Of a DNA stretch of 64,000 nt, positions 3,573 through 19,813 are shown in pieces. Position 1 is the stretch's first letter; each line of letters starts with the position of its first letter. Both the position numbers and the translations under genes were made by a program. This DNA comes from an uncultured delta proteobacterium. GTDB lineage: Bacteria; Myxococcota_A; Polyangia; Fen-1088. The stretch is taken from assembly GCA_963737265.1 (NCBI GenBank), contig CAVTRY010000007.1, positions 224,001-288,000 of the forward strand. The letters are read 5' to 3'. The notes below the pieces were generated by a model that worked only from the letters and a program-made list of their open reading frames with translations, was not told the origin of the DNA and made no database searches.

Positions 3573-4898
3573 ATGCCGAGCGAAGGGAAACGCGCGCATC
3601 CGCTGCTTTGGGTACCGAGCCTCTACTTCGCCATGGGCACGCCCATGATCGCCGTGTCGGTGGTGGCGGCCATTATGTACAAGAATCTGGGGCTGACCAA
3701 CACGCAGATCGCCGCCACCACGGGCGCGATGTACCTGCCCTGGGTGGTCAAGCCGCTGTGGGCGCCGCTCGTCGAGCTCTTTCGCACCAAGAAGTTCTTT
3801 GTGCTCGCCATGGAATCCACCATGGTGCTCATGTTCGCGGGCATGGCGTTCGCGCTCAGAATGCCAGCCTATCTGCCGCTCACCGTCGCGCTTTTTTGGA
3901 TCACTGGCTTCGCATCGGCCACCCAGGATATCGCGGGCGACGGCGTCTACCTGACATCGTCGAGCGCGAAAGAGCAGGCGCTCTACATCGGCGTGCAAGG
4001 CACGGCGTGGAACCTTGGCCGGGTGCTGGTTTCGGGCGCGCTGGTCAGCCTGACCAAGCTTTTGTTCGACTGGGCCGCGGCGGGAAAGCCCGCGCCAGCC
4101 AGCGGTCCCAATCCAGCTTGGTTCACGGCGTGGATGGTCGTCATGTTGCTCATCGCCGTCATTCTAGCCGCGACCGTGCTGTGGCACTGGTACTTGCTTC
4201 CGCAGGGTGCCAAGGCCGCGGACGCCGCCACCAGCGTGTCCGGCGCCCTGCGCACCACCGGCGACGCGTGGGCTAGCTTCTTCAAGAAGCCGCGCGTGTG
4301 GATGATGATCGCCACGGTCTTTTTCTATCGTTTCGCCGAAGGCTTCATCGAAAAGATCGGTCCGCTCTTTCTCATGGACAAGCGCGCGGACGGCGGCCTC
4401 GGCCTCGACAACATGGTTCTTGGCAACATCAACGGCACTGCCGGCACCGTCGCGTTCGTGGGCGGAACCCTGCTAGGCGGCTTGCTGGCCGCGCGCTGCG
4501 GCCTGCGCCGAGTCTACTTGCTGCTGGCCTTCGCGCTGAACATTCCGCACATCACATTCTTCTACTTGAGTCACGCCATGCCCACCAGCCTCGCCTTGAT
4601 CACCGGCGTGGTGCTAGTCGAAAAGCTTGGCTACGGCCTCGGCACCGTCGGCATGATGCTCTATATGATGCAAGAGCTGTCGCCCGGCCGCTATCGCACG
4701 GCCCACTACGCCTTCGCCACTGGCATCATGGCGCTCAACATGATGCTGACCGGAATGGTGAGCGGCCGCATCCAAGCCTGGCTGCATTATCCAATGTTTT
4801 TCGCCTTCGTGCTGCTCGCCTCGATTCCGCCCATCGTCATCGCGTGGTTCGCGCCGTTTCGCTCGCCGATTGGGGCTGCCGAAGAACCGACCGCGTGA
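3573..4898 (+). CDS. MFS transporter, AmpG-like
   Basis: About 12 hydrophobic segments; [26 protein letters not shown] and YRFAEG motifs typical of AmpG permeases. Confidence 0.85.
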
Positions 4899-5082: not shown

Positions 5083-6870
5083 TTGCGACAGCGCAAAGAT
5101 CCGTCACGCGACGCAAACAACGAGGCCCGTCATTTGAACCCAACAGCCGCTCCCAACTCCGCCCAGCCAATTTCGTCTGGAGCGGGATCTCAGCCGATCT
5201 TGCAGATCGTTCCCGCGCTGCGCGCACCAAGCGCGTCCAGAGCGCACGAAGATGTCTCGCATGGCGGCCTCGGTCCGGAACAGATTCTCGCAGCCCTGCG
5301 GGACATCGAGCGACCGCTCTTCGCGGCGGTCAAAGGCCTTGACACCATCCTTACCGATCGTGCTCCCCACACACTTGAAGGCTTGACCGGCGTGATTCCA
5401 GCGGTTCCCATCGAAAACCTCGGCTCAGCTTCGTTTCGGCGCGAGCACAACCTTCGCTACGCCTACGTTTCGGGCGCCATGGCGGGCGGCATCGCTTCCG
5501 TCGATCTCGTGGTCGACATGGCCCAGTCTGGCTTCTTGGGCTTTTTTGGCGCCGGCGCCTTGACCCTTCCCGCCATCGACCAGGCGATTCGGCAAATCCA
5601 GGCACGCCTGCCAGGCGGCGAATCCTACGGCGTGAACCTTCTGCACAACTATTATGACGAACAGCTCGAATGGGCGACGGTGGAGCTGTACCTGTCGCTC
5701 GGCGTGACCCGCATCGAAGCGGCGGCTTTCGTGTCGATGACCGCGCCTCTCGTCTACTACCGGGTGAAGGGAATCCATCATGCACAAGACGGCCGCGTGG
5801 TCGTGCCCCATCACGTCTTCGCCAAGGTCAGCCGGCCGGAGGTGGCGACGCAATTCCTGTCGCCGCCGCCCGAGACCATGGTGCGCGACCTCTTGGCGAG
5901 CGGAAAGATCACGCCCGACGAAGCGGCCCTGGCGGCCGAGATTCCCGTGGCGAGCGAGATGACGTGCGAGGCGGACAGCGGCGGCCACACCGATCGGCGA
6001 CCGCTCTCGGTGCTGCTGCCCATGATGCTGCATGAACGCGAGCAGGCCATGCAGCGGCACGGTTACGCCGAGCGCGAAATCGAAATTCGCCTGGGCGCCG
6101 CGGGCGGCATCGGCGAACCGCTGTCGGTTCATGCCGCTTTCGCGATGGGCGCGGACTACATCGTCAGCGGGTCGATCAATCAGGCGTGCCGTCAATCCGG
6201 CACCGCGCCGCGCGTGCGGCAGATGCTGGCCGAAGCTTGCATGGCCGATGTTGCCATGTGCCCTGCGTCCGACATGTTCGAAATGGGCGGCAAGGTCCAG
6301 GTGCTCAAGCGCGGCACCATGTATCCGCAACGCGCGCAACGCCTTTACGAGCTTTACAAGACCTATCCGTCGTTCGATGCCATTCCCGAGCCCGAGCGCA
6401 AGAAAGTTGAAACCCAAATCTTGAAGCGCACCTTCGCCGATGTGTGGCAAGAAACCGAGCGCTACTGGATGTCGCGCATGCCTGACGAGGCCGAGCGCGC
6501 GCGCAAGGACGAAAAGCACAAGATGGCGCTGTGTTTTCGTTGGTATCTTGGCATGTCCTCGCGCTGGGCACGTCTCGGCGAAGAGAGCCGCCAGGCCGAC
6601 TATCAGATCTGGTGCGGCCCCGCCATCGGCGGGCTCAACCGCTGGACCCAGGGCACCTTCCTGGCGCGCGCCGAGAATCGCGACGCGCCGACGCTGGCGC
6701 ACGCGCTGCTGGTGGGCGCCGCCGTATTACAACGGCGCGAACTCGCTGCCCGCGCGTGCGTCGGCAACCTGCCCACGGTGGTGGCCGCGATGAAGCTCAG
6801 TGACAGCTGGCTTATGGACGGCAAGAACGCTGTATCCGGCAGCGTTGGCGGAACTGCTTTGGGTCTGTAG
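5083..6870 (+). CDS. pfaD: PfaD-family FMN-dependent enoyl reductase (PUFA/trans-AT PKS type); start uncertain
   Basis: YVSGAMAGGIAS, GFFGAG, YGVNLLH, AKVSRPEVA, EADSGGHTD, GAAGGIG, GSINQ, PASDMFEMG.KVQVLKRGTMYP.RA..LY, DYQIWCGPAIG. Confidence 0.9.
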   Translation: MRQRKDPSRDANNEARHLNPTAAPNSAQPISSGAGSQPILQIVPALRAPSASRAHEDVSHGGLGPEQILAALRDIERPLFAAVKGLDTILTDRAPHTLEGLTGVIPAVPIENLGSASFRREHNLRYAYVSGAMAGGIASVDLVVDMAQSGFLGFFGAGALTLPAIDQAIRQIQARLPGGESYGVNLLHNYYDEQLEWATVELYLSLGVTRIEAAAFVSMTAPLVYYRVKGIHHAQDGRVVVPHHVFAKVSRPEVATQFLSPPPETMVRDLLASGKITPDEAALAAEIPVASEMTCEADSGGHTDRRPLSVLLPMMLHEREQAMQRHGYAEREIEIRLGAAGGIGEPLSVHAAFAMGADYIVSGSINQACRQSGTAPRVRQMLAEACMADVAMCPASDMFEMGGKVQVLKRGTMYPQRAQRLYELYKTYPSFDAIPEPERKKVETQILKRTFADVWQETERYWMSRMPDEAERARKDEKHKMALCFRWYLGMSSRWARLGEESRQADYQIWCGPAIGGLNRWTQGTFLARAENRDAPTLAHALLVGAAVLQRRELAARACVGNLPTVVAAMKLSDSWLMDGKNAVSGSVGGTALGL

Positions 6871-7406: not shown

Positions 7407-9186
7407 ATGACCGTGTCCCGTCACAAACTGCTACTGGTCGGCCTCGCAGTTGGCGTGTTTGGCGCTTGCGCCACGCAACCCATCACTAAGTTGGTCGGCG
7501 GCCGCCAGATCAGCACGCGTTCGGTCGACCCGAACGCCTACGAACACGTCAGCCGCGCCTTGCTCTACGAGGAACAGGAGCGCTGGCAGGACGCCGCGAC
7601 CGAGATCCAGCGCGCGCTCGCGTTCGACAGCGATGCACCCGAATTGCACGCGCACCTGGCCGAGATCTTTCTGCGCATGGATCGCGTCAAAGAGGCGTCG
7701 GCCGAGGTACGCGATTCGCTGCGGATTGGTGCCAGCGCGAGTGGGCTCGTCGCCGACGCGCACGTGCGCCGGGCGCAGGGGGACATGGCTGGCGTCGTGG
7801 CGGCGCTTCGCCGCGCCAAGGGCGAGGTTGATTTTCAGTCGAGCGACGACGACGCCGAGACGGTGTACCTGGAGCTCGCCGATGCCGAGTTGCATGTGCT
7901 CGACATCGCGGGGGCGCGAAGCGACCTCGAAACCCTGTGCCAGGCCGTGCCGGCGTCGGGCAGCGGCCACATGCGCTTGATGGCGCTCGATTGGGCGACG
8001 GGAGAGATGACCCTGGCCGAGGAGCAGCTACGTGCTGCCTTGGCCGAGGAGCCGAACCAGATCGAGGCCATCGCGGCGCTGGCGTGGATCTACGCGGCCT
8101 CGGGCAGAAACGACGACGCCCGTCGAACCTTTCTCGACGCACTCGATCGGTCGGAGGGATCGCTCGAACATCGCGGCGGCGTTCGCGCGTTTCCTGGTCG
8201 GCATCGGCAGCAACAAGGAAGCCGAGCAACTGGCGGACGATTCGGCGGTTCCCGACGGCAGCTTGGACGCCGAGTCGCTCGATGCGCGCATCGAGCTCGA
8301 ACGCTCGGCACGCCGCCTCGACCGCGCCTTGGCGTTGCTCGCGCGCGGGCGCACCCTCGAAATGCCCGACGAGCGGAAGACGCGCCTTTCGTTCACCGAG
8401 GCCGCGCTTCTCAAGGAACAAGGCAAAACCGACGCGGCGGTCGCGGCGCTGATGAAGGTCGGTACGGATTCGCCGCTTTATCTTGAGGCCCGCTTGCGGG
8501 TTGCCGAGCTTCTGCGTGAAAGTGGTAAACTCGCCGAGGCTGAGCGCGTGGTCGGCGATGCCACGGGCTTGGCCAAGGGAGATCGAAACACCGTTGATGC
8601 CGAGGTGGCGGTCAGCCTGGCGCTCATCGAGGAGAAGCGCGGGGATCCGGCAACAGCCGTCGCGCGCCTGGAGAAATTGTTGACCAACAATCCCAGCGAC
8701 GCCACGGAGAGCCGAGTGACCATGACCCTGGCGGCTATCGAAGACCGCCGTGACAACTGGAAGCGTGCGCTCGATCTGGTCGAGGTGCTGCTGGCCAAGC
8801 AACCCGGGTCGGTCGAGGCGCTCAATTTCTGGGGCTTCGTGGCGGCCGATCGCGACCACGACCTCGATCTTGCCAGCAAGCGATTGCAAGTGGCCAATAC
8901 CCTCGATCCCGGCTCGGGTGGGCTCATCGACAGCTTGGGCTGGGTTCATTTTCACGCGCGCGACTTGACCAAGGCCAGCCTCTTCCTGGAGCAGGCGGCC
9001 CACCTCGAGCCCATCGACCCTGAAATCCAGTGGCATCTCGGCGAGCTGTATGCCGAGCGTAAAGAGATTGAACGAGCGGCGACGACCTTTCGCCGCGCGC
9101 TTGGCTTTAGCCCCGACGAACGGCTGCGACGGAAGCTCGAAGCGAGCCTGGCGCGGCTCGCCGCGCGCAAGGTATCGAAGCAATGA
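7407..9186 (+). CDS. TPR lipoprotein (LbcA/PA4667-like), split by a one-base insertion at about 8167 (error or pseudogene)
   Basis: Lipobox VFGAC. TPRs run in ORF 7407.. up to GSLE, then continue in ORF 8032..9186 (IAAAFARFL..., ALNFWGFVAADRDHDLD, LIDSLGWVHF, DPEIQWHLGELY). Confidence 0.8.
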
Positions 9187-10013
9187 CGGCGTTGCGCGAT
9201 GTCGTTCGCGGCGCCTGCTGTTGTCTTTTGGTGATGGCCGCTGGTTGCGCCGGCACCGCCCACGTCACACGCAGATATCCGGCGCCGACGGCCGAGATCC
9301 TGTTGCAGGCTGTGAGAGCCCGGCAGTCTGCCGTACGCGGCAGCAACATCGAAGCGCGCGCTACGAGCTGGCTTGGTGGGCAGCGCGTGCGCGGAACCGT
9401 GCAAATGCTGGTGGAGCGCAGCGGCCGACTGCGCTTCGAGGCCGAGGTTTCCTTGCAGGGCACGGTGGCGGCGCTGGCGGTGGACCACGGACAGTTCACC
9501 TTCATCGACCACCAGAAGCATGTCTTTCGCAAAGGCCCGGCCTGCCCGGCGAATGTCGCCGCCCTGATTCGCATTCCGCTCGCGCCCGAGGCGGTGGCGG
9601 CTATTCTGCTCGGAGACGCTCCGCTGGCCAAAGACGACAAGCTGGCTGGCGTGGAATGGGACGGCGCACGCGGCGCGGACGTATTGGTCCTGCGCGACCG
9701 GCACGCTACGACGCTATGGCTAGGACTGCGACGGCCGGATCCGATGAAGGCGGAGTGGGACGTCTTGTATCTGGAGGGACTAGATGCTAATGCGAAGACC
9801 CGCTGGCGCGTGGCTTACGACGATTTCGAACGCGTGGGCGGCGTTGCGTTGCCGCGCCTGGTGCGTTTCGCCGAGTCGGGCAAGGACTTCGACGACGGTG
9901 TCGAAATCAAGGTTCGCGAACGCCTGCTCAACCCGACTTTTCCTGAGCGGGCCTTCGTGCTGGAAGAGCCCTCGGGCTACACCGTCGAGCCCGCGTTTTG
10001 CGGCGTAATGTAG
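9183..10013 (+). CDS. Lipoprotein, probably LolA/LolB-like fold (DUF4292-like)
   Basis: Lipobox AAGC; beta-rich RSGRLRFEA and VAYDDFERVGGVALPRLVRF; ATGA overlap with the TPR gene. Confidence 0.6.
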   Translation: MTALRDVVRGACCCLLVMAAGCAGTAHVTRRYPAPTAEILLQAVRARQSAVRGSNIEARATSWLGGQRVRGTVQMLVERSGRLRFEAEVSLQGTVAALAVDHGQFTFIDHQKHVFRKGPACPANVAALIRIPLAPEAVAAILLGDAPLAKDDKLAGVEWDGARGADVLVLRDRHATTLWLGLRRPDPMKAEWDVLYLEGLDANAKTRWRVAYDDFERVGGVALPRLVRFAESGKDFDDGVEIKVRERLLNPTFPERAFVLEEPSGYTVEPAFCGVM

Positions 10014-10085: not shown

Positions 10086-10114
10086 TTGCGGGCGTGTTTT
10101 CGCGCTCGTATCTT
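10086..10114 (+). promoter_or_regulatory. Putative sigma70 promoter with AT-rich UP element for the activase operon
   Basis: TTGCGG-N17-TATCTT preceded by ATGAATTTAATCTTTTTTAA. Confidence 0.5.
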
Positions 10115-10165: not shown

Positions 10166-13100
10166 ATGCACGACGATGCAACGTTTGCCCGAAACTCTTT
10201 TCTTCTTGGAGTCGACGTCGGCTCCACGACAGTCAAGGTCGTGGTGGTCGATCCGGTGTCGCGCGAAATCTTGTGGGCGGACTACCAACGCCACCAAACC
10301 CGCCAGGCCGAAAAGGTGCTGGAGCTGCTGGAGGCGAGCTGCGAGCGTTTCCCGAGTCTTGCCACGTCGCCCGAGGCTGTTCGCGTGTTCATCACGGGCT
10401 CGGGCGCATCGCCGTTGGTCGATCCGATCGGCGCGCGCTTCGTCCAAGAGGTCAACGCCGTCACGCTGGCGGTCGAGCGGCTGTATCCTGACGTGGGCTC
10501 GGTGGTCGAGCTCGGCGGTCAGGACGCCAAGATCATCATCTTCAAGGAAGGCAAGGACGAGAGCGGACGCAGCACGGGGAAGACCGCCATCGCGTCGATG
10601 AACGACAAGTGCGCGTCCGGCACGGGCGCCACCATCGATAAGTGTTTCATCAAAGTGGGAATGCCCGCGGCCGACGCTGGGCGCCTGCGCTTCAGCGATG
10701 GGAAACTGCATCACGTCGCCGCCAAGTGCGGTGTGTTCGCGGAGACCGACATCGTCAATCTGGTCAAAGCCTCCATTCCGGCCGAGGAGATCATGTGCTC
10801 GTTGGCCGACGCCATCGTGATGCAGAACCTGTCGGTGCTCACCCGCGGCAACACCCTTCGCCACAAGGTGCTGCTGCTCGGCGGCCCCAACGCCTACCTG
10901 CCCTTCTTGCAGGACTGTTGGCGCAAGCGCATTCCCGAAACCTGGGCCTCGCGCGGCTACGCGTATCCGCAAGACGTGCCCCTCGAAACGCTCATCTTCG
11001 TTCCGCCCAAGGCGGAATACTATGCCGCGTTCGGGGCGGTGATGTACGGCGCGCAAGAGCCCAGCCAGACGGGGACGTTCCACGGATTGGACGCTTTGCG
11101 ATCCTTCATCGCCTCGGGGCGAAAGGCCAAGCTTGGCGATGCGGCGGGTCCGCCGCTGGCGCGTTCGACCACGGAGCTGGAAGACTTTCGCACGCAATAC
11201 CGCATTCCCCGTTTCGAGCCGGCCAAGCTGACACCTGGAAGCGTGGCGCGCGTCGTGGTCGGCATGGACGGCGGCTCGACGTCGTCGAAAGCCGTCGTCA
11301 TCGACGAGCAGCGAAATATCCTGAAGAAGGAGTACCAGCTTTCCAAGGGCAATCCGATCCAGGATGCGAAGGAGATCCTTTCGCGCCTCAAAGCTTGGGC
11401 CGAGAGCCAGCAGGCGACCCTGGACGTCATCGGCTTCGGTGCCACCGGGTACGCGGCGGACGTGCTGGAAAAGACCGTGCGCGCCGATGCCAATCTGGTC
11501 GAAACCGTGGCGCACATGACGTCGGCAACGACCTACTTTGGCGACGTGGACGTGGTCTGCGATATCGGCGGGCAGGACATCAAGGTGCTGTTCCTGCAAA
11601 ACGGCGACATCAAGAACTTTCGTCTGTCGAACCAATGCTCGGCCGGCAACGGCATGCTTTTGCAGGCCATGGCCGATCAGTTTGGCGTACCCATCACGGA
11701 GTACGCGAATACGGCCTTTGCCGCCACCCTGTCGCCGCGCTTCAGCTACGGCTGCGCCGTCTTTCTCGACTCCGACCGGGTAAATTTTCAGAAAGAAGGC
11801 TACGCCAAGGAAGAGCTACTGGCCGGGCTCGCGCAAGTGTTGCCCAAGAACGTCTGGCAGTACGTCGTCCAGATCCCGCGCATGGCGGCGCTTGGGCGCA
11901 GATTCGTGTTACAGGGCGGAACCCAGTACAACCTGGCGGCCGTCAAAGCCCAAGTCGACTACATCAAAGAACGCGTGCCCGGCGCGGAGGTGCTGGTGCA
12001 TCCCCACTGCGGCGAAGCGGGTGCCATCGGCGCCGCCTTCGAGGCCTTGCGCGTGGTCAAGCGGCGCGGCCATTCCACCTTCGTCGGACTCGACGCCGCC
12101 ATCAACATGGCGTGGGAGGCGCGCAACGATGAAAGCACGCGCTGTCATTTCTGCGCCAACAACTGCGCCCGCACCTTCATCGACACGCATACGCCCGACG
12201 GCGGACAGGCGCGCTACATCAGCGGATTTTCCTGCGAAAAGGGAACCGTCGAATCGAAGGACGCGATGGTCGCCATCGCGACCGAGCGCAAGTCGGTCAT
12301 GAAGCGCTTTCCCAACCTGGTCGACTATGAAGCGCGCCTGCTGTTCAAGCACTTCTACGATCCGCGCCCGCTGCCCGAGGACGGCGCGCCGATGGAGGAC
12401 ATCGAGGTACAGAAGACGCTGCTCGGCGTGCGCCGCGTGCCCATCCAGCGCGGTTTTAGGCGATCGAGCACCGAAGCTCTCGATCGGCGGCGCAAGCTCC
12501 GCATAGGAATTCCGCGTGTGCTCAACATCTGGTCCACCGCGCCCTTCTGGCGGACCTATTTGGAAACGCTCGGGCTCCCGCGCGCCAATGTTGTCTTCTC
12601 CGACACCACGTCGGAGGAAATGTGGATCGAAGGCGGCAAGTACGGCTCGGTGGATCCGTGCTTCCCCGCCAAGGTTGGGCAAGCCCACGTGCACAACTTG
12701 CTCTTTCACCATCACAAACCCGAGCTGCCGCTTCACTACATCTTCAATCCCAGCCTTACCCACGTGCCTTCCTTCGTGAAAAACGCTCAAGACTATGCCT
12801 CGTGTCCCATCGTGGCCGGTTCGCCCAACGTGCTCAAGGCGGCCTTCACCAAGGAGATGGATTTCTTTGCCCAGCGAGGGATCCGCTATCTCGACTCGGC
12901 CTTCACCTTGATTGAGCCGCACCTTCTGCGCCGACAGCTGTTCGAGGCCTTCGGCGAGATTTTACAAATCACCGAGGACGAGTCGGATTTCGCCAGCCAA
13001 GAGGCGTTCGCGGCCATGCGCCGACTCGACGAGGAGATGGAAGCGAAGGGCAGGGCAATCCTCGACGAGGTCGAACGCGACAACCGGGTGGCGCTGCTGC

Positions 13101-13837
13101 TTCTCGGCCGCCCGTACCATCTCGACCCGGGGCTTAATCACGCTGTGCTGGAAGAATTTCAATTGCTGGGCTTTCCCGTGCTCAGCATCCGCTCGATTCC
13201 CAAGGACGAATCCTACCTCGGGCGATTCTTCGCCGAGGATCTGGCCAGCGGTCGCATCAAGAGCCCGCTCGAAATCAGCGACGTGTGGCCCGAGAACTAT
13301 TCGTCGAATTCGGCCATGAAGGTGTGGGCCGCGAAATTCGCCAGCCGCCATCCGCACGTTGTGATTCTGGATCTGTCCTCGTTCAAGTGCGGGCACGATG
13401 CGCCCACCTACGGAATCATCGACAGCATCATCTCGTCGGCGGGCACGCCCTACTCGGCATTGCACGATATCGACGCCAACAAGCCCGGCGGTTCGATCAA
13501 GATCCGCGTGAAGACCTACGCGCACAGCCTGGCCCTGCACCAGGATCGCCTGGCGGATCTGTCCCGGGCGAAGGCAGAGCTTGGCCACCGGATCGATTTG
13601 AAACGCCTCGAGCTTTTGCGCCGCAAGCAACACGAGCTGGGGGCGCGCGCCTTGGGCGACACGGGCATCGCCCGCCAGATTTCAGAATTGGTCGATCGAG
13701 TAAATCGTTACGAACGCGATAACAGCAACGATGCGGAGAGTGCCAAGGCGCTGGCCGCGAACGCCACGCGCGCCGACATGGGTCTGGTCCGCCTCGGCGT
13801 TCGTCGCGACCGGTCCGATACTATCTCGCACATTTGA
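10166..13837 (+). CDS. CoA-substrate activase with two BadF/BadG/BcrA/BcrD ATPase domains plus a DUF2229 reductase/dehydratase domain (PlsA/Ger-like)
   Basis: Act1 GVDVGSTTVK...ELGGQDAK...MNDKCASGTG...CGVFAETD; Act2 GMDGGSTSSK...DIGGQDIK...NQCSAGNG...CAVF; CHFCANNC...SCEKG; Red1 GIPRVLN, CFPAK, CPIV, LLGRPYH, SFKCGHDA, IKIRVKT. Confidence 0.88.
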   Translation: MHDDATFARNSFLLGVDVGSTTVKVVVVDPVSREILWADYQRHQTRQAEKVLELLEASCERFPSLATSPEAVRVFITGSGASPLVDPIGARFVQEVNAVTLAVERLYPDVGSVVELGGQDAKIIIFKEGKDESGRSTGKTAIASMNDKCASGTGATIDKCFIKVGMPAADAGRLRFSDGKLHHVAAKCGVFAETDIVNLVKASIPAEEIMCSLADAIVMQNLSVLTRGNTLRHKVLLLGGPNAYLPFLQDCWRKRIPETWASRGYAYPQDVPLETLIFVPPKAEYYAAFGAVMYGAQEPSQTGTFHGLDALRSFIASGRKAKLGDAAGPPLARSTTELEDFRTQYRIPRFEPAKLTPGSVARVVVGMDGGSTSSKAVVIDEQRNILKKEYQLSKGNPIQDAKEILSRLKAWAESQQATLDVIGFGATGYAADVLEKTVRADANLVETVAHMTSATTYFGDVDVVCDIGGQDIKVLFLQNGDIKNFRLSNQCSAGNGMLLQAMADQFGVPITEYANTAFAATLSPRFSYGCAVFLDSDRVNFQKEGYAKEELLAGLAQVLPKNVWQYVVQIPRMAALGRRFVLQGGTQYNLAAVKAQVDYIKERVPGAEVLVHPHCGEAGAIGAAFEALRVVKRRGHSTFVGLDAAINMAWEARNDESTRCHFCANNCARTFIDTHTPDGGQARYISGFSCEKGTVESKDAMVAIATERKSVMKRFPNLVDYEARLLFKHFYDPRPLPEDGAPMEDIEVQKTLLGVRRVPIQRGFRRSSTEALDRRRKLRIGIPRVLNIWSTAPFWRTYLETLGLPRANVVFSDTTSEEMWIEGGKYGSVDPCFPAKVGQAHVHNLLFHHHKPELPLHYIFNPSLTHVPSFVKNAQDYASCPIVAGSPNVLKAAFTKEMDFFAQRGIRYLDSAFTLIEPHLLRRQLFEAFGEILQITEDESDFASQEAFAAMRRLDEEMEAKGRAILDEVERDNRVALLLLGRPYHLDPGLNHAVLEEFQLLGFPVLSIRSIPKDESYLGRFFAEDLASGRIKSPLEISDVWPENYSSNSAMKVWAAKFASRHPHVVILDLSSFKCGHDAPTYGIIDSIISSAGTPYSALHDIDANKPGGSIKIRVKTYAHSLALHQDRLADLSRAKAELGHRIDLKRLELLRRKQHELGARALGDTGIARQISELVDRVNRYERDNSNDAESAKALAANATRADMGLVRLGVRRDRSDTISHI

Positions 13838-13855
13838 TCGGGAAGGAGCAGCGTC

Positions 13856-16800
13856 ATGATCGGGAACGGGACCGAATCCGCGCAGCAGGCAAGGCGAAGC
13901 TTGCCGGTCATCAACGAACCGGCCTTCGACAGCAAAAGCGAGCTGACCGATGTGGAGAAGGAGCTGGCCGAGTTCGAACGCGAAGAGCACAAACGCCTGG
14001 GAATTCCGGCCCTCGATCGCCATTGGCGCGACGCCATGGTCAATCCGCAATTCAGCAAGAGCGAGCGGCCGAATACGACCTTGCTGGTTTCCGGATTGAC
14101 CGCCGCGCACGACCACCTGGTCAAGGCGGTGCTGAGCGGGCTTGGTTACAACGTTGAAGTCATCGATGTCCCCGACAACGAATCGCTTCGCTACGGCAAG
14201 GAATTCGGCAATCGCGGACAGTGCAACCCCACCTATTTTACCGTCGGCAACCTGGTCAAGTTCCTGACCGAACGCTGTCGCGACGAAGGTATAGAGCCCG
14301 CCCAAGCGGTGCAGCGTTACGTCTTTCTCACCGCCGGTGCATGCGGCCCGTGTCGCTTCGGCATGTACGCGACTGAATATCGCAAGGCCCTGCGCGATGC
14401 TGGCTTCGACGGCTTCCGGGTCATGCTGTTCCAGCAGCAGGGCGGCCTGGCGCAGGCAACGGGACAGGAAGCGGGCCTGGAATTCACGCCGAAATTCTTC
14501 ATTGGACTGCTCAAGGCGCTAATGGCGGGCGACGTGCTCAATGGCCTCGGCTACCGCATGCGCCCGTTCGAGGTGGAGCCGGGAAGCACGGATCAGGCAC
14601 TGGCGCGCGCCAAGGAACATGTGCAGACAGCGCTCGCTAATCGGAGCTCGCTGCTTCTGGCGCTGTTGCGCGCGCGCAAGGAAATGGCCACGGTGAAATG
14701 CGATTTCACGCGGCCCGCGCCGCGCGTTTCGATCATCGGCGAATTCTGGGCCATGACCACCGAGGGCGATGGCAATTACCGGCTGCAGCGATTCCTCGAA
14801 CAAGAAGGCGCCGAGTGCGACGTGCAGCTCGTCACCAACTGGATTCTCTACAGCGTGTGGGAAGCGCGCTACGACGCGCGCACGCGCGCCAATCTGCGCG
14901 GCAAGGACAACGCCACATCGAGCTTGAAGGGGCCCGAGTCGCGCGTGGGCTTGCACCGGGCCACTCTGTTTCTCGCGGATCGTGTGCTGCGCATGGCATT
15001 TCAGTCCTTCGCGACACTCGGCGGATTCCGCGGCTACAAGCTGCCCAACATGGACGAGATCGCCTCCGTCGCGCACCAGCACTACGACAACCGGCTGCGC
15101 GGCGGCGAAGGGCACATGGAGGTGGGAAAATTCATTCTCAACGTGCTCCACAACAAATCGCACATGACCCTGTCGGTGAAACCGTTCGGTTGCATGCCGT
15201 CGTCGGGTGTCTCGGACGGCGTGCAAAGCCTCCTCACCGCCAAGTTCCCGCAAAGCCTGTTTTGCGCCATCGAGACCTCGGGCGACGGCAAGGTCAACGT
15301 GCAGAGCCGCGTGCAGATGTCCGTGTTCAAGGCGCGCCAGAAGGCGCAGGTGGAATACCAGGAGGCGCTCGACCGCTTCGGAATCACGCGCGAGCGCCTG
15401 CAAGAATTCTTTGCGGCCCATCCGCGCTACGCGAGCCCGTTGCGCCGCTCCCCGCACGCGGGCGCTGGCACGGCCGCGGATCGCTTGGCCGAGGTCGCGC
15501 CGCTCATCGGAAAATCGCCGCTGGCGGTGCGGACGATCGAGGCGCGACGGCATGCCGAGGCCGCCGTGCGATCGGCGCGCGGCGTGGTCAGCCAGGCGCT
15601 GCGCACGGCCGAGCGGCTGCGCGCGCAGCCGTGGCCAATCCTCGAACGTTTGGAGCGTGTCAAGGCTGCGTGGCGAACGCCGGTGGCGACGCCTGCGCCG
15701 TCTGCCGACACCGTGGCGAATCATCAAGACGCCAAGCCTGTGATGGCGCCCCTTCGCTCGGCGAAGCTCGCCGTAGTGCCAGCGACCGCGCGCGACGTGC
15801 CGGCGCCGGTGCAGCAGCCAGCCAAGGCGCCACCAGTCGCCAAAGCGCCGCCTCTTCCCGTCAGCGAGCCGTCGTCCGATCCCGCCAGCGCGCTCAGCGT
15901 GGCCCGCGGCGTGGGCAACGCGGCCAAGGATTTCCATTGGCTCAAGGAAAACATACCTTGTCAGTCCGCTTGTCCGGCCCACACCGACGTTCCCGCGTAC
16001 ATGAAGGCCATCTCCGCCGGCCGCTTCGACGAGGCCTACGAAATCAATCTGCGCGACAACGTCTTTCCGGCGGTGCTCGGTCGGGTTTGCTCGCGGCCCT
16101 GCGAAGCTGCCTGCCGCCACGGCTGGAAAGGCCTCGGCGAGCCGGTGGCTATCTGCTGGAGCAAGCGCGCATCTTCCGATCTTCGCAAGGGCAAGCCGAC
16201 GGTCTTGCCACAGCTTGCTCCTCCGACGGGAAAACGCGTGGTCATCGTGGGCGCGGGCGCCGCTGGGCTCGCGGCGGCGCGCACGCTGGCGCTGCTCGGC
16301 CACGGCGTCGTCGTGCTCGAACAGCACGCGCGTCCCGGCGGCATGATGGTGCAAGACATCCCGGAATTCCGCCTGCCGCGCGACGTGGTGGAGCTCGAGA
16401 TCGAGCAGATTCGCCTGACCGGCGTCGAAATTCGTTGTGGCGTTGCCTTGGGCCGCGAGGTGACGATGGCCGAGCTCGAGGCCGAGTACGACGCCGTGAT
16501 TCTGGCCGCCGGCACTCTTCGCCCCAACACCCTCGATCTGCCTGGCAAGGAATTGCGTGGCATCGAGCACGGTCTGGATTTTCTGCTCAAGGTGAATGAA
16601 GGTGAGGCGAGCGGCGAGAAAGTCGCCTTGGGCGAGCACGTGCTCGTCATTGGCGGCGGGTTCACCGCAATGGATTGCGCCCGCACGGCGGCGCGCCTGG
16701 GCGCGAACACCGTGCAGCTCACGCCTGCGCCCGGCGGCCGCGATCAAATCCCTGCGCTCAAGCTGGCCGCGGAAACCGTGCGCGTGCTCTACCGCCGGTC

Positions 16801-17713
16801 CAAGGAAGAAATGCTCATCACCCCGGGCGAGATCGAAGACCTGCAACACGAAGGCATGGATCTGGAAATCATGGTGGCGCCAGTGGCCTACCTTGGCGAC
16901 GAAAACGGCGAAGTACGCGGCATGCGTTTCGTGCGCACGCAAATGGGACCGACCGACGCCTCGGGACGACGGCGCCCCGAACCCATCCCCGGCACCGAAT
17001 TCGAGCTGCCAGCGACCACCGTGCTGCTCGCGACCGGACAATTCCCCGACGGAACCATTGTCGGCAGCGACGGTCAGGGGCTGGTCACGCCGGACGGCTG
17101 GCTTGCCACCGGCTCCGCGCATCGAACTACGCGACCCAAGATCTTCGCTGCGGGCGACTTTGCCACCGGGGCGAGATCGCTCATCGAAGCCATCGCCCAC
17201 GCCAAGGAATGCGCCTTGGTGGTGGACGAAAATCTCGTAGGCAAGCGCCGCATGCAAGAGCTGGCGATTGTGGAAGACGCGCGCGAAACCGGACGCACGC
17301 GCGCGATGGACGAGGTGCCACGGCGAAAGATGCGGCTGCTGCCGGTGCTCGATCGCACCCTGAGCGCCGAGGTGGAGCAGGGCTTCGATCGCGAGCGCGC
17401 GACTGAGGAAACCCTGCGCTGCTACCTGTGCCACCACAAGATGGAGATCGATCCCGCCGTGTGCACCAATTGCGACCTGTGCCTCAACGTAAAGGCGCGC
17501 GCCGATTGCATCATCAAGGTCAGCTCATTCCAGTACGACGAAGCCGGTCGCATCAAGGGATTCGAGCGTGCCACCGCCGAAGACGATCATCCGCGCATCT
17601 GGATCAACCAGAACGAATGCATCCGCTGCGGTGCCTGCATCGACGTTTGCCCCGACGACGCCATCAGCTTGCAAAAGGTCAGCCTGCGAACCGTGATGAC
17701 GGCCAAAGCGTAG
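13856..17713 (+). CDS. Fusion protein: 2-hydroxyacyl-CoA dehydratase-like (PlsR/Red2) domain + Pro/Ala linker + GltD/NfnB-like FAD/NAD(P)H FeS oxidoreductase + C-terminal ferredoxin
   Basis: N-terminal GKEFGNRGQCNPTY, GACGPCRFGMY, IIGEFW, GGEG, KPFGCMP. From about 15950: PCQSACPAH, GRVCSRPCEAAC, VIVGAGAAG, VIGGGFTAMDCAR, YRRS, IFAAGD, RCYLC, CTNCDLC, CIRCGACIDVCP. Confidence 0.88.
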   Translation: MIGNGTESAQQARRSLPVINEPAFDSKSELTDVEKELAEFEREEHKRLGIPALDRHWRDAMVNPQFSKSERPNTTLLVSGLTAAHDHLVKAVLSGLGYNVEVIDVPDNESLRYGKEFGNRGQCNPTYFTVGNLVKFLTERCRDEGIEPAQAVQRYVFLTAGACGPCRFGMYATEYRKALRDAGFDGFRVMLFQQQGGLAQATGQEAGLEFTPKFFIGLLKALMAGDVLNGLGYRMRPFEVEPGSTDQALARAKEHVQTALANRSSLLLALLRARKEMATVKCDFTRPAPRVSIIGEFWAMTTEGDGNYRLQRFLEQEGAECDVQLVTNWILYSVWEARYDARTRANLRGKDNATSSLKGPESRVGLHRATLFLADRVLRMAFQSFATLGGFRGYKLPNMDEIASVAHQHYDNRLRGGEGHMEVGKFILNVLHNKSHMTLSVKPFGCMPSSGVSDGVQSLLTAKFPQSLFCAIETSGDGKVNVQSRVQMSVFKARQKAQVEYQEALDRFGITRERLQEFFAAHPRYASPLRRSPHAGAGTAADRLAEVAPLIGKSPLAVRTIEARRHAEAAVRSARGVVSQALRTAERLRAQPWPILERLERVKAAWRTPVATPAPSADTVANHQDAKPVMAPLRSAKLAVVPATARDVPAPVQQPAKAPPVAKAPPLPVSEPSSDPASALSVARGVGNAAKDFHWLKENIPCQSACPAHTDVPAYMKAISAGRFDEAYEINLRDNVFPAVLGRVCSRPCEAACRHGWKGLGEPVAICWSKRASSDLRKGKPTVLPQLAPPTGKRVVIVGAGAAGLAAARTLALLGHGVVVLEQHARPGGMMVQDIPEFRLPRDVVELEIEQIRLTGVEIRCGVALGREVTMAELEAEYDAVILAAGTLRPNTLDLPGKELRGIEHGLDFLLKVNEGEASGEKVALGEHVLVIGGGFTAMDCARTAARLGANTVQLTPAPGGRDQIPALKLAAETVRVLYRRSKEEMLITPGEIEDLQHEGMDLEIMVAPVAYLGDENGEVRGMRFVRTQMGPTDASGRRRPEPIPGTEFELPATTVLLATGQFPDGTIVGSDGQGLVTPDGWLATGSAHRTTRPKIFAAGDFATGARSLIEAIAHAKECALVVDENLVGKRRMQELAIVEDARETGRTRAMDEVPRRKMRLLPVLDRTLSAEVEQGFDRERATEETLRCYLCHHKMEIDPAVCTNCDLCLNVKARADCIIKVSSFQYDEAGRIKGFERATAEDDHPRIWINQNECIRCGACIDVCPDDAISLQKVSLRTVMTAKA

Positions 17714-18093: not shown

Positions 18094-19813
18094 GGGTGCA
18101 GATCTTGCAGACGACAATGAATTGCGGCCGAAATGCACAGCTTTGTAGACAAAAGGGGGCTCTACAAGGCACCTATGGGTTGTCAACAACCATAGATAGC
18201 CAGGAGGCCCCCAATGCAGATACAAGCACAGTCGACCGCCGCCGAGAAGCCCTTTGCTGATAGCCAGCGCTACTTTCAGCAATTCGTCCACCGCCTGTCA
18301 TCGGCGGACACCATGCGCATGACCCATGGCGAGCTGGAGCGATACATGGAGCGAGACGGCTTTGAGTTGCTGCGTGTCCTCTTTCAAGACCACCTGGATC
18401 TGCGAGGACCAGGCGAGGCACAGAGCGACGTGGTGGGCAGCGATGGCGTACGGCGGCCCCATGCGCGGATGCTCGAACGGAAGCTCAAGATTGTTTTCGG
18501 GACCGTTGAGGCCGGACGCATGGGCTACTCGGCGCACGACGCAGAGACGCTCTTTCCCCGCGATGCCGAGCTGAATCTGCCGCCGAATCTGTATTCCATG
18601 GGGTTGAGCGCCGCGTAGCCAATGAGGTCATCAAGGGATCGTTCGACTCGGCGGTAGAGTCCGTGGCCGTAACGACCGGGACGACCGTGCCCAAGCGCCA
18701 GGCGGAAGAGACGGCGGCGCGGGCGGCTGCGGACTTCGATGCTTTCTACGCAAACCGCAGTGCGGACTCGACACGCGCGGCCGCCAAGACCGGCGAGATA
18801 CTAGTGCTGACGACGGACGCCAAGGGCATCGTGATGCGGACCGAAAGCCTGCGTGAGGGAACGCGAGCGGCAGCGGAGAACAGCCAACACAAGCTCGCAA
18901 AGCACCTGAGTCCTGGCGAGAAGCGGAATCGCAAGCGGATGGCGCAAGTAGCAGCCGTGTATACGATCAACCCCTTCGTGCGCCGGCCGGAGGACGTTGT
19001 CAGGGAGATGCGGCCGAAAGCCGGCGATGCGCCGGCGCCGACTCGGCCCCGACCTGAAAACAAGCGAGTCTGGGCCAGCGTGGACAAGTCCGCCGACGAG
19101 GTGGTCGGTGCCATGTTCGCGGAAGCGCAACTTCGAGATCCCTCTGGCACCAAACAGTGGGCAGCACTGGTAGACGGGAACCCGACGCAACTCAAGCTCA
19201 TCAAGCAAAACGCCAAGCGCCTTGGCGTAGCCGTAACCATCGTGGTCGACATCATCCATGTACTGGGCTACATGTGGTCGGCCTCTCTGGCGATCAACGG
19301 CGAAGGTAGCGCCGCAGCTGAGCAGTGGGTAACCAAGCGACTTCTGGCGCTGCTGCGGGGCGAGTCAAGCAGCGTCGCTGCTGGAATGCGCCGCAGCGCC
19401 ACGCTTCGCGAAATGACCACCAAGGACCGCGCAGTCGTCGACACCTGCGCCGACTACTTGCTCAAGTACCGTGCGTACCTGCACTACGACCGCTATCTCG
19501 CCGACGGCGTGCCCATCTCAACTGGAGTCATCGAAGGCGCCTGTCGCCACTTAATCAAGGACCGAATGGACATCACCGGCGCTCGTTGGGGCCTCGCGGG
19601 TGCGGAGGCCGTCTTGAAGTTGCGCTCATTGCGCTCCAGCGGCGATCTCGATGAATACTGGGCTTTCCACGAGAGAGCCGACTATGTCCGCAACCATGCC
19701 GACCGATACAAGGCCGCGCCGCCCGCCACCATCCTGCCGTTGAACCTCACTCGCCGAGGCCACCTGCACGCAGTCAATTAGCCATCAAACCGTCGCCGAA
19801 AGGAACTGCACCC
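18094..19813 (+). mobile_element. ISKra4-family insertion sequence; no target duplication visible
   Basis: Imperfect terminal inverted repeats GGGTGCAGATCTTGCAGACGAC (left) and GGGTGCAGTTCCTTTCGGCGAC (right, reverse complement) enclose the transposase. Confidence 0.8.
18214..19781 (+). pseudogene. ISKra4-family DDE transposase with a one-base deletion at about 18597
   Basis: ORFs 18214..18618 and 18663..19781 join as LYSHGVERRVA if one C is restored. Motifs TDAKGIVMR, LVDGN, VDIIHVLGY, PISTGVIEGACRHLIKDRMDITGARW. Confidence 0.85.

Follow-up and report, generated by a model that had tools for sequence, protein, structure and literature searches.

Where would an enzyme built like PlsA/PlsR and Ger obtain its electrons? 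This question is raised by two adjacent genes at positions 10166-17713 of the window, by which we mean a whole stretch of 64,000 nucleotides from an uncultured delta proteobacterium of the class Polyangia (assembly GCA_963737265.1, contig CAVTRY010000007.1, positions 224,001 to 288,000 of the forward strand). To our knowledge, PlsA/PlsR and Ger are the only enzymes that convert a finished ester lipid directly to an ether lipid. The gene pair encodes a PlsA/Ger-like enzyme of an uncharacterised split clade, in which the second reduction domain (Red2) is a separate gene, and in one genus Red2 is fused to an electron-input module; the architecture is of a known kind and the fusion appears to be new. 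Ger and PlsA reduce an ester, a reaction in which electrons are consumed (PMC13159169; 10.64898/2026.06.23.733905). The electron source is not discussed in the texts consulted: the word "electron" occurs 0 times in those of PMC13159169 and PMC9702350, and "ferredoxin" and "NADPH" 0 times in that of PMC12838417. The literature searched, which did not extend to supplements or to the bulk of subscription journals (Jackson et al. 2021 among them), describes neither a fusion of this kind nor an electron donor for PlsA/Ger; within the same scope, the statement of the initial annotation that no PlsR-GltD fusion had been described held.

Gene 2 (13856-17713, + strand) is one uninterrupted open reading frame (ORF) of 1285 amino acids. 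The layout that had been read from the letters was borne out: an N-terminal domain, a Pro/Ala linker (formerly placed at about 15670-15900 and measured here at 15656-15940), and, with no stop in between, a GltD/NfnB-like module ending in a ferredoxin domain. The N-terminal domain of about 560 residues (13856-15535, +) is the equivalent of PlsR/Red2. It is followed (15536-15940, +) by a conserved tail and then by the flexible linker, residues 601-695, which contains 40% Pro+Ala versus 14-17% in the flanking domains. Within the genus, the identity of the linker was 33-56%, versus 79-85% for the module and 74-82% for Red2. A Pro/Ala tether that evolves this fast would be in keeping with an electron-carrier domain that swings.

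The appended part is a complete module, as had been proposed. It begins with a Fer4_20 domain (15950-16180, +; residues 699-775; 54 bits), having two [4Fe-4S] sites of the GltD/NfnB/DPD type, and its Cys are invariant in the 19 sequences of an alignment of the module and its relatives (A1). Next comes Pyr_redox_2, for FAD and NAD(P)H binding (16235-17200, +; residues 794-1115; 96.5 bits), and last a C-terminal ferredoxin-like domain (17420-17680, +; Pfam Fer4 at residues 1249-1271), whose 10 Cys (1189-1265) are all invariant in the same alignment. The motifs of the module are GAGAAG at 799, GGGFTAMD at 933, YRRS at 979, and CIRCGACIDVCP, within the ferredoxin-like domain, at 1255. The Y-R-R of the third is invariant in 19/19 aligned relatives, and by its sequence YRRS would be a 2′-phosphate site, which suggests a preference for NADPH. 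The NCBIfam model NF009410 (PRK12771) covers residues 695-1273 (profile positions 43-563 of 566) with 380.5 bits, below its cut-off of 516; standalone relatives of the module also fall below it (399.8 and 384.2 bits). The closest solved sequences are NfnB-like modules in larger redox proteins (9n5u_A, 9bov_A, and 8oh5_C, E 1e-75 to 1e-85, the last from the Stn transhydrogenase entry, PMC10482914), followed by NfnB (4ylf_B, 3.7e-68), GltD (2vdc_G, 3.2e-53), and dihydropyrimidine dehydrogenase.

The fusion is real and not an assembly artefact. We searched 41 related genomes with the whole gene 2 protein, in a stricter first pass by which weak matches may be missed, and found the colinear Red2-module arrangement in 9 of the 13 genomes of the window's genus, the window's own (G000) included. 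It lies in one unbroken frame in six (G000, G001, G005, G007, G008, and G012), Red2 and the module are in different frames in two (G002 and G010), and the fused gene is cut by the contig end in one (G011); there was no Red2 match in the other four (G003, G004, G006, and G009; completeness 74-94%). One might suspect that the assembly is wrong, or that a stop or frameshift in the linker was overlooked, considering that the linker is of low complexity and GC-rich (69% GC around 15500-16500), that the two parts are in different frames in those 2 of 13 genomes, and that in one public run (X1) identical short contigs cover part of the linker and leave 15366-15553 and 15600-15725 open. In G010 (contig C13, locus L024, 4406-11946), however, gene 1 is spread over five frames and gene 2 over two; because gene 1 is broken too, these breaks look like assembly indel errors and not pseudogenes. 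About 19 protein clusters from ENA, JGI, NCBI, and Logan, at 74-94% identity, agree with the fused protein in length and domains. Contigs of four public runs were aligned to window positions 14800-16800, and an independent metagenome contig of 24,036 bases (run X3, depth 25.5) was colinear through Red2, linker, and module, its linker having a 100-nt diverged stretch of equal length to that of the window. In the X2 and X3 contigs the gaps add up to 9 and 3 nt, both multiples of three. The unbroken frames, the clusters, and the bridging contig therefore make misassembly very unlikely, and we regard the chance of an artefact of any of these kinds as close to negligible.

The same searches show how narrow the fusion is. 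It is confined to one genus among those searched, a local invention and not a general solution, so that the same fused architecture, proposed earlier as something to be sought in other genomes, was met with in this genus only. The fused form fills a single cluster at 50% identity. Red2 is present in all of the other 12 genera of the family (53-70% identity), none of them with a colinear GltD-like part beside it. Long open frames surround Red2 in seven phylum genomes and CarF in two; no GltD-like part and no other domain was seen in them, the module being absent from 7/7 of the Red2 loci. When the Red2 domain was compared with 1.84 billion representatives, it gave 1885 matches at E≤0.001 and 301 at E≤1e-30, and among the best 150 Red2 matches only one representative, P0008 (1271 aa), had the fused length. 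Five matches contain the module only (452-649 aa, 81-85% identity); four of them come from contigs of less than 4 kb, the fifth is P0090, and they are most simply fragments of fused genes.

The remainder of the enzyme is formed by gene 1 and Red2. Gene 1 (10166-13837, +; 1223 aa from the ATG at 10166) has the order Act1-Act2-Cys4-Red1, the "BBD" architecture of PlsA/Ger-type enzymes. Its ORF starts with a GTG at 10094, and alignments of homologues begin around residue 10-14 after the ATG at 10166; therefore 10166-13837 is a reasonable call, and Cys residues are numbered from that ATG. Pfam recognised PF01869 (BcrAD_BadFG) in two stretches (226.7 bits) and PF09989 (DUF2229) over profile positions 1-217 of 218 (156.9 bits, cut-off 29.4). 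Activase domain 1, of the ASKHA fold (10202-10885, +; cluster Cys C149/C188), matches the sequence of MbdP (9gai_C, E 1e-13), and activase domain 2 (11258-12046, +; cluster Cys C491/C530) is the best PF01869 stretch and matches HgdC (1hux_A, E 1.6e-24). Red1 corresponds to DUF2229 (12500-13195, +), with conserved C832, C880, and, at 13388-13390, C1075. Between the activases and Red1 there is a motif of four conserved Cys, C660-x2-C663-x3-C667...C690 (12143-12235, +), a putative metal or iron-sulfur (FeS) site. The two ASKHA activases and DUF2229 of the initial annotation were thus recovered by Pfam, while its CxxCxNxC motif had to be corrected: the letters are CHFCANNC, that is, C-x2-C-x3-C, with the fourth conserved Cys 23 residues on. 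Gene 1 has 11 candidate ligand Cys, all conserved in 17/17 split-clade and 5/5 canonical sequences, except C663, which is kept in 4/5 of the canonical ones. The NCBIfam models on gene 1 were only generic activase and benzoyl-CoA-reductase ATPase models (TIGR00241, 181.2 bits, cut-off 125.4), and its PDB sequence matches were activases only: HgdC, MbdQ/MbdP (9gai_C/D; 9gai_D, 1.5e-20), HadI (4eht_A), and the double-cubane-cluster protein reductase 7yyl_E (E 5.6e-12).

An intergenic spacer of 18 nt (13838-13855, +) separates the two genes and contains a Shine-Dalgarno-like GGAAGGAG 7 nt 5′ of the gene 2 ATG; both genes probably form one transcript. Promoter and terminator scans gave nothing above shuffles. 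In Red2, residues C123, C166, and C446 are invariant in 25/25 sequences. Residues 1-600 of gene 2 match zero Pfam families even at E≤1, PF06050 (HGD-D) is matched by 0/25 members of the Red2 clade, and a Red2 profile found nothing below E 0.5 among PDB sequences.

In all 22 larger loci (15/15 Red2 loci of the family and class and 7/7 further loci of the phylum), gene 1 and Red2 lie side by side on the same strand, and the same pairing was seen in the metagenome loci L130 and L132. No other neighbour of the pair is conserved among the loci compared, and this obligate pairing without shared neighbours indicates that the gene pair is a self-contained unit. Two BcrAD_BadFG domains, DUF2229, and a second reduction domain are also the parts of Ger (T. 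maritima Tmari_0479; D. alkenivorans SHJ90043) and of PlsA/PlsR (C. perfringens). In that type the second reduction domain is in the same chain or in a separate gene (PlsR), and here it is in a separate gene. The Act1-Act2-Red1-Red2 layout described for PlsA/PlsR and Ger (PMC13159169; PMC12838417) is thus matched, in domains and colinearity, by gene 1 and the N-terminal part of gene 2, as the initial annotation had it. The close PlsA/PlsR relationship that it implied did not hold. We judged the kinship by means of an uncharacterised canonical paralog, taken as a stand-in for the characterised sequences, and of the published architectures. This paralog, in the same genome, is a one-chain PlsA/Ger-type protein of 1439 aa with BBD and a weak HGD-D match (PF06050, 23.7 bits; contig C13, L210 5263-9582, −). 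Gene 1 is colinear with it over 1031 residues (24% identity, E 7e-59), and Red2 aligns with its residues 1021-1359 at 23% identity over 380 residues (E 4e-20), with the three Cys motifs aligned. In general, canonical forms of about 1420 aa match Red2 at just 23-27% identity. Red2 is closer, 40-58% identical, to the C-terminal part of one-chain Act-Act-DUF2229 relatives of 1580-1880 aa, and one protein, P0242 (1623 aa), has the permuted one-chain order Red2-Act-Act-DUF2229. These comparisons place the gene pair in a deep, separate, uncharacterised split clade.

The FeS Cys of the canonical one-chain form are all common to the gene pair. Differences are the length (about 1780 aa for gene 1 plus Red2, versus about 1420-1440 aa), the domain signals (Ger is described as BBDHDDH in PMC13159169, whereas Red2 here has no HGD-D or DUF2229 Pfam signal), and the fused NAD(P)H-FAD-FeS-ferredoxin module, which is in no described PlsA/Ger member. 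With the activases of class I benzoyl-CoA reductases and 2-hydroxyacyl-CoA dehydratases (BCR/HAD; HgdC, MbdQ/MbdP, and HadI) the enzyme shares the ASKHA fold and two cluster Cys per domain. By this likeness, ATP-driven low-potential electron transfer to a three-Cys FeS partner would take place as in BCR/HAD systems. Unlike in those systems, the activases are fused in tandem and to a catalytic domain, the catalytic domains are DUF2229/Red2 and give no PF06050 sequence match, and there are no genes of CoA-ester metabolism in the unit. Beside gene 1 and this paralog, no DUF2229 locus and no PF06050 partner were found in the same genome. The paralog divergently adjoins a gene with LPG_synthase_C (PF09924, 136.7 bits; L210 9692-10567, +), the C-terminal domain of phosphatidylglycerol lysyltransferase; this membrane-lipid context is not present at the pair in the window.

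The distribution of the two forms bears on the substrate. Of the 28 class genomes that do not belong to the genus, 19 have the split clade only (one with stops), 8 the canonical form only, 1 both, and 0 neither; in the window's genus the canonical form is present in 13/13 genomes. Over 301 genomes of the phylum, 13 have both forms, 97 only the split one, 51 only the canonical one, and 140 neither (odds ratio 0.37; Fisher p 0.002, a value overstated because kin are not independent). This suggests that the split and canonical forms are alternatives for one role. A protein of 729 aa on one 18-kb Logan contig, P0025, joins Red2 (59% identical) to a lipid desaturase domain of the CarF/PEDS1 type (192.8 bits), a family that desaturates alkyl ether lipids to plasmalogens in Myxococcus (introduction of a sponge preprint). 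The record labels of split-clade relatives are Polyangiaceae, Myxococcales, Deltaproteobacteria, and SAR202 metagenome-assembled genomes (MAGs), and in the Atlas, clusters resembling Red2 occur most often in Myxococcota, Acidobacteriota, and Bacillota, taxa that rest on few members. PlsA and Ger, the only characterised BBD members, both act on sn-1 acyl esters (PMC13159169). Taking together the phyletic pattern, the P0025 fusion, and the labels of the relatives, a glycerolipid ester is the most likely substrate; we infer the lipid function only from homology and phyletic pattern.

The same machinery might serve a substrate other than a membrane glycerolipid ester: the split clade would then be an ATP-dependent FeS reductase or dehydratase whose target is, for instance, an acyl-thioester, an aromatic compound, or, as with double-cubane-cluster proteins, a small molecule; the module would still be the electron source. 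Such a reading would agree with the activase match to 7yyl_E, with the lack of any Pfam family or PF06050 match in Red2, with the 23-24% identity to the canonical type, with the lack of conserved lipid neighbours of the pair, and with the 140 of 301 phylum genomes that have neither form, where the function is dispensable. Against it are the strict colinearity and ligand conservation with the BBD architecture (PMC13159169), the complementary distribution in the class, the Red2-CarF protein P0025, although a singleton, and the pair's having no recurring CoA-ligase, thioesterase, or catabolic genes beside it. We consider another substrate rather unlikely, while a substantial share of our doubt lies there.

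As regards the module, the company kept by its relatives indicates what it may do. NfnB-like ferredoxin:NADP+ oxidoreductases (Cac_0764 type), KGOR-alpha/NsoC, DsrL, and GltD all share its Fer4_20 plus FAD/NAD(P)H core. DsrL, an electron donor to DsrAB, has the same domain order. The C-terminal ferredoxin domain is common to the fused module and to standalone proteins of about 600 aa beside KorAB, PFOR, and sulfite reductase. Unlike NfnB-type proteins, the module here is the C-terminal half of a BCR/HAD-type catalytic subunit. Its family includes a KGOR-alpha/NsoC clade named in PMC10134865, and NfnB-like Fer4_20 plus Pyr_redox_2 proteins were shown biochemically to be monofunctional, non-bifurcating ferredoxin:NADP+ oxidoreductases (PMC12221290). 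We examined the module neighbourhoods in 80 loci of named genomes. In the 32-35% and 38-41% identity tiers, KorAB-type genes follow those of the relatives. The closest tier adjoins a PFOR of 1203 aa at L055, and is also found beside NIR_SIR sulfite reductase and PAPS reductase (by Pfam on L052, by ORF clusters on L054 and L061) and beside formate-tetrahydrofolate ligase (by Pfam on L053, by clustering on L066 and L080). From these neighbours, the family appears as a plug-in link from NAD(P)(H) to ferredoxin-level FeS enzymes.

The nearest standalone relatives are full length, 590-700 aa, 52-60% identical, and come from MAGs of Kiritimatiellia, Verrucomicrobiota, Lentisphaerota, and Burkholderiales. 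In a quick IQ-TREE analysis of 49 rows, the five fused modules form one clade (SH-aLRT 100), which is nested in a standalone group from other phyla (100), and a branch of length 2.21 separates them from the copies of the sister genera. The latter are 33-34% identical and lie, in 5/5 loci, directly before a KorA-like gene (POR + POR_N) and a KorB-like gene (TPP_enzyme_C). An origin of the module from the family's own KorAB-linked gene was rejected, since the tree nests the fused clade among standalone proteins of other phyla; G000 does not have the KorAB operon of the sister genera. Two observations on these relatives may be added. At L052, L054, and L061 (Pontiella, Kiritimatiellales, and an unclassified MAG), the relative lies between genes of an NIR_SIR-type sulfite/nitrite reductase and a PAPS reductase, and by this position it may be an NAD(P)H-linked donor for assimilatory sulfite reduction. 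In loci L033-L037 of the sister genera and L081-L129 (Bradyrhizobium, Ramlibacter, and others), three genes form a unit and encode a GltD-like/ferredoxin protein of about 600 aa, a KorA-like protein of about 620 aa, and a KorB-like protein of 351 aa. These lengths fit the sizes reportedly given by Ebenau-Jehle et al. in 2003 for the three-subunit 2-oxoglutarate:NADP+ oxidoreductase (KGOR) of Azoarcus evansii.

Considering all of the above, we propose that the pair would be one enzyme of the BCR/HAD superfamily, built like PlsA/PlsR and Ger and self-sufficient on NAD(P)H. In this scheme the fused activase pair would share one [4Fe-4S] cluster, and the two three-Cys FeS catalytic domains, Red1 of gene 1 and Red2 of gene 2, would form the reductase. 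NAD(P)H would reduce the FAD of the module fused to Red2, and single electrons would pass from FAD to the two Fer4_20 clusters and on to the clusters of the ferredoxin domain. The flexible linker of about 95 residues would then bring the built-in ferredoxin to the activase cluster, ATP hydrolysis would drive the electron onto Red1/Red2, and a glycerolipid acyl ester would be converted to an alk-1-enyl or alkyl ether, each bond consuming 2 or 4 electrons. Relatives without the fusion would depend on a low-potential donor separate from the enzyme. The window's genome encodes a haem-copper oxidase, so the organism is able to respire oxygen, and with NAD(P)H entering through the enzyme itself it would be able to do without a separate low-potential ferredoxin system. 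Ger, by comparison, was active only anaerobically in E. coli (PMC13159169). We infer which way electrons flow in this scheme, where docking takes place, and that the substrate is a lipid, and as a whole we give it about the same chance of being right as of being wrong. The earlier reading of the module as an electron input gains from the standalone relatives beside ferredoxin-dependent enzymes and from the NfnB-like precedent; it is not borne out as a general solution for the enzyme family, with the fusion in one genus only.

The module could have a different task. It might bifurcate, splitting the NADPH electron pair between a high- and a low-potential route, or run in reverse and drain electrons to NAD(P)+. 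The best solved relatives are NfnB-like modules of larger redox proteins (8oh5_C, and 9n5u_A, which is labelled NfnA), the FAD is flanked by two FeS arms, and the OFOR-adjacent relatives most likely run from FeS to NADP+, all of which would suit this possibility. We hold it to be improbable, taking into account that there is no NfnA-like or other high-potential partner in the unit, that NfnB-like proteins without NfnA are non-bifurcating (PMC12221290), and that the reductase needs an electron input, not a drain. Alternatively, the module would be itself a catalytic reductase that turns the vinyl ether made by Red1/Red2 into an alkyl ether, an option raised in the initial annotation. An alkyl ether needs two more electrons than a plasmalogen, and the module is joined to the catalytic subunit, not to the activase; nevertheless, the module is made up of electron-transfer parts only and has no additional domain for a substrate, its relatives occur as partners of other catalytic proteins or fused to them, and T. 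maritima Ger forms alkyl ethers although it has no module of this kind (PMC13159169). This option is not favoured, and we take it to be very improbable.

Several results weigh against the self-sufficient enzyme proposed here. Electrons that pass from NAD(P)H to clusters at ferredoxin level go thermodynamically uphill, and the reverse direction, from ferredoxin to NADP+, is called exergonic (PMC12221290). The adjacent gltD-like genes looked for beside unfused relatives were found in 0/17 loci (10 + 7), and a gene 1 or Red2 homologue was present within the flanks of 0/80 loci of the module family, so the fusion, a single event, is all that ties the module functionally to the enzyme. The low identity to the canonical type already given, together with a split clade that has no characterised member, also counts here, as does the comparison of Red2 with Red1 by hhalign (probability 0.5%, E 0.13), from which paralogy is not demonstrable by sequence. 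Regarding the lipid, no conserved lipid gene lies beside the pair in the loci of its relatives. No further Red2-CarF protein of 400-1276 aa besides P0025 was found in 5.8 billion clusters, and a metagenome scan returned 3 Red2-only and 77 CarF-only loci and none joined, with 0/77 CarF-like loci near gene 1 or Red2; P0025 may be a real rare fusion or a chimeric contig. The presence of CarF shows no association with the split clade in the phylum (39/71/53/138, odds ratio 1.43, p 0.19), and the window's own genome does not have CarF.

With respect to the surroundings, none of the neighbours in the window (MFS, PfaD, TPR, DUF4292, and the downstream ORFs) recurs next to the pair in the 15 Red2 loci, not even in those of the genus. 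A gene for a PfaD-family enoyl reductase, of the kind found with polyunsaturated fatty acid and polyketide synthases (TIGR02814, 619.2 bits, cut-off 449), lies 3.3 kb upstream of gene 1 (5083-6870, +) and is preceded by an MFS transporter gene (3573-4898). The part of the window that was examined showed no further pfa genes, and PfaD is not conserved beside the pair in relatives. Between PfaD and gene 1 there are two overlapping ORFs with TPR repeats (7407-8486 and 8032-9186, +) and, directly upstream of gene 1, a weak match to DUF4292 (9183-10013, +; E 4.4e-4). About 500 nt downstream of gene 2 there is an ORF of an ISKra4-family transposase (18663-19781, +; 265.4 bits, cut-off 205) that covers profile positions 139-422 only; a 134-aa ORF just before it (18214-18618) may be its detached N-terminal part. 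This transposase may explain the missing downstream synteny.

The natural fusion of a catalytic subunit to an NAD(P)H-FAD-FeS-ferredoxin chain offers a concrete, clonable hypothesis for the donor. It belongs to a large split clade, present in 110 of the 301 phylum genomes and comprising the 301 representatives at E≤1e-30, in which a separate gene, invisible to Pfam, encodes the second reduction domain. In a preprint, "BBD-only" matches of Ger were read as having no second reduction domain (10.64898/2026.06.23.733905), so a Pfam-invisible, separate Red2 bears on who can make ether lipids. A bolder and unlikely conjecture, to which we give only a minor chance, is that in aerobic or microaerobic bacteria of soil and ocean (Myxococcota, SAR202, and Acidobacteriota, by record names and Atlas clusters) the enzyme that forms ether bonds would be the split clade, an analogue of Ger that surveys would have missed because its second reduction domain has no Pfam model, and that an NADPH-driven, ferredoxin-tipped pump would have freed this genus from low-potential ferredoxin. 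If this were true, the fused protein would name the physiological electron route of the whole PlsA/Ger family, would provide a self-sufficient ether-lipid synthase for expression in aerobes, and would become a candidate enzyme for the ether-forming step that is missing in aerobes producing branched ether lipids.

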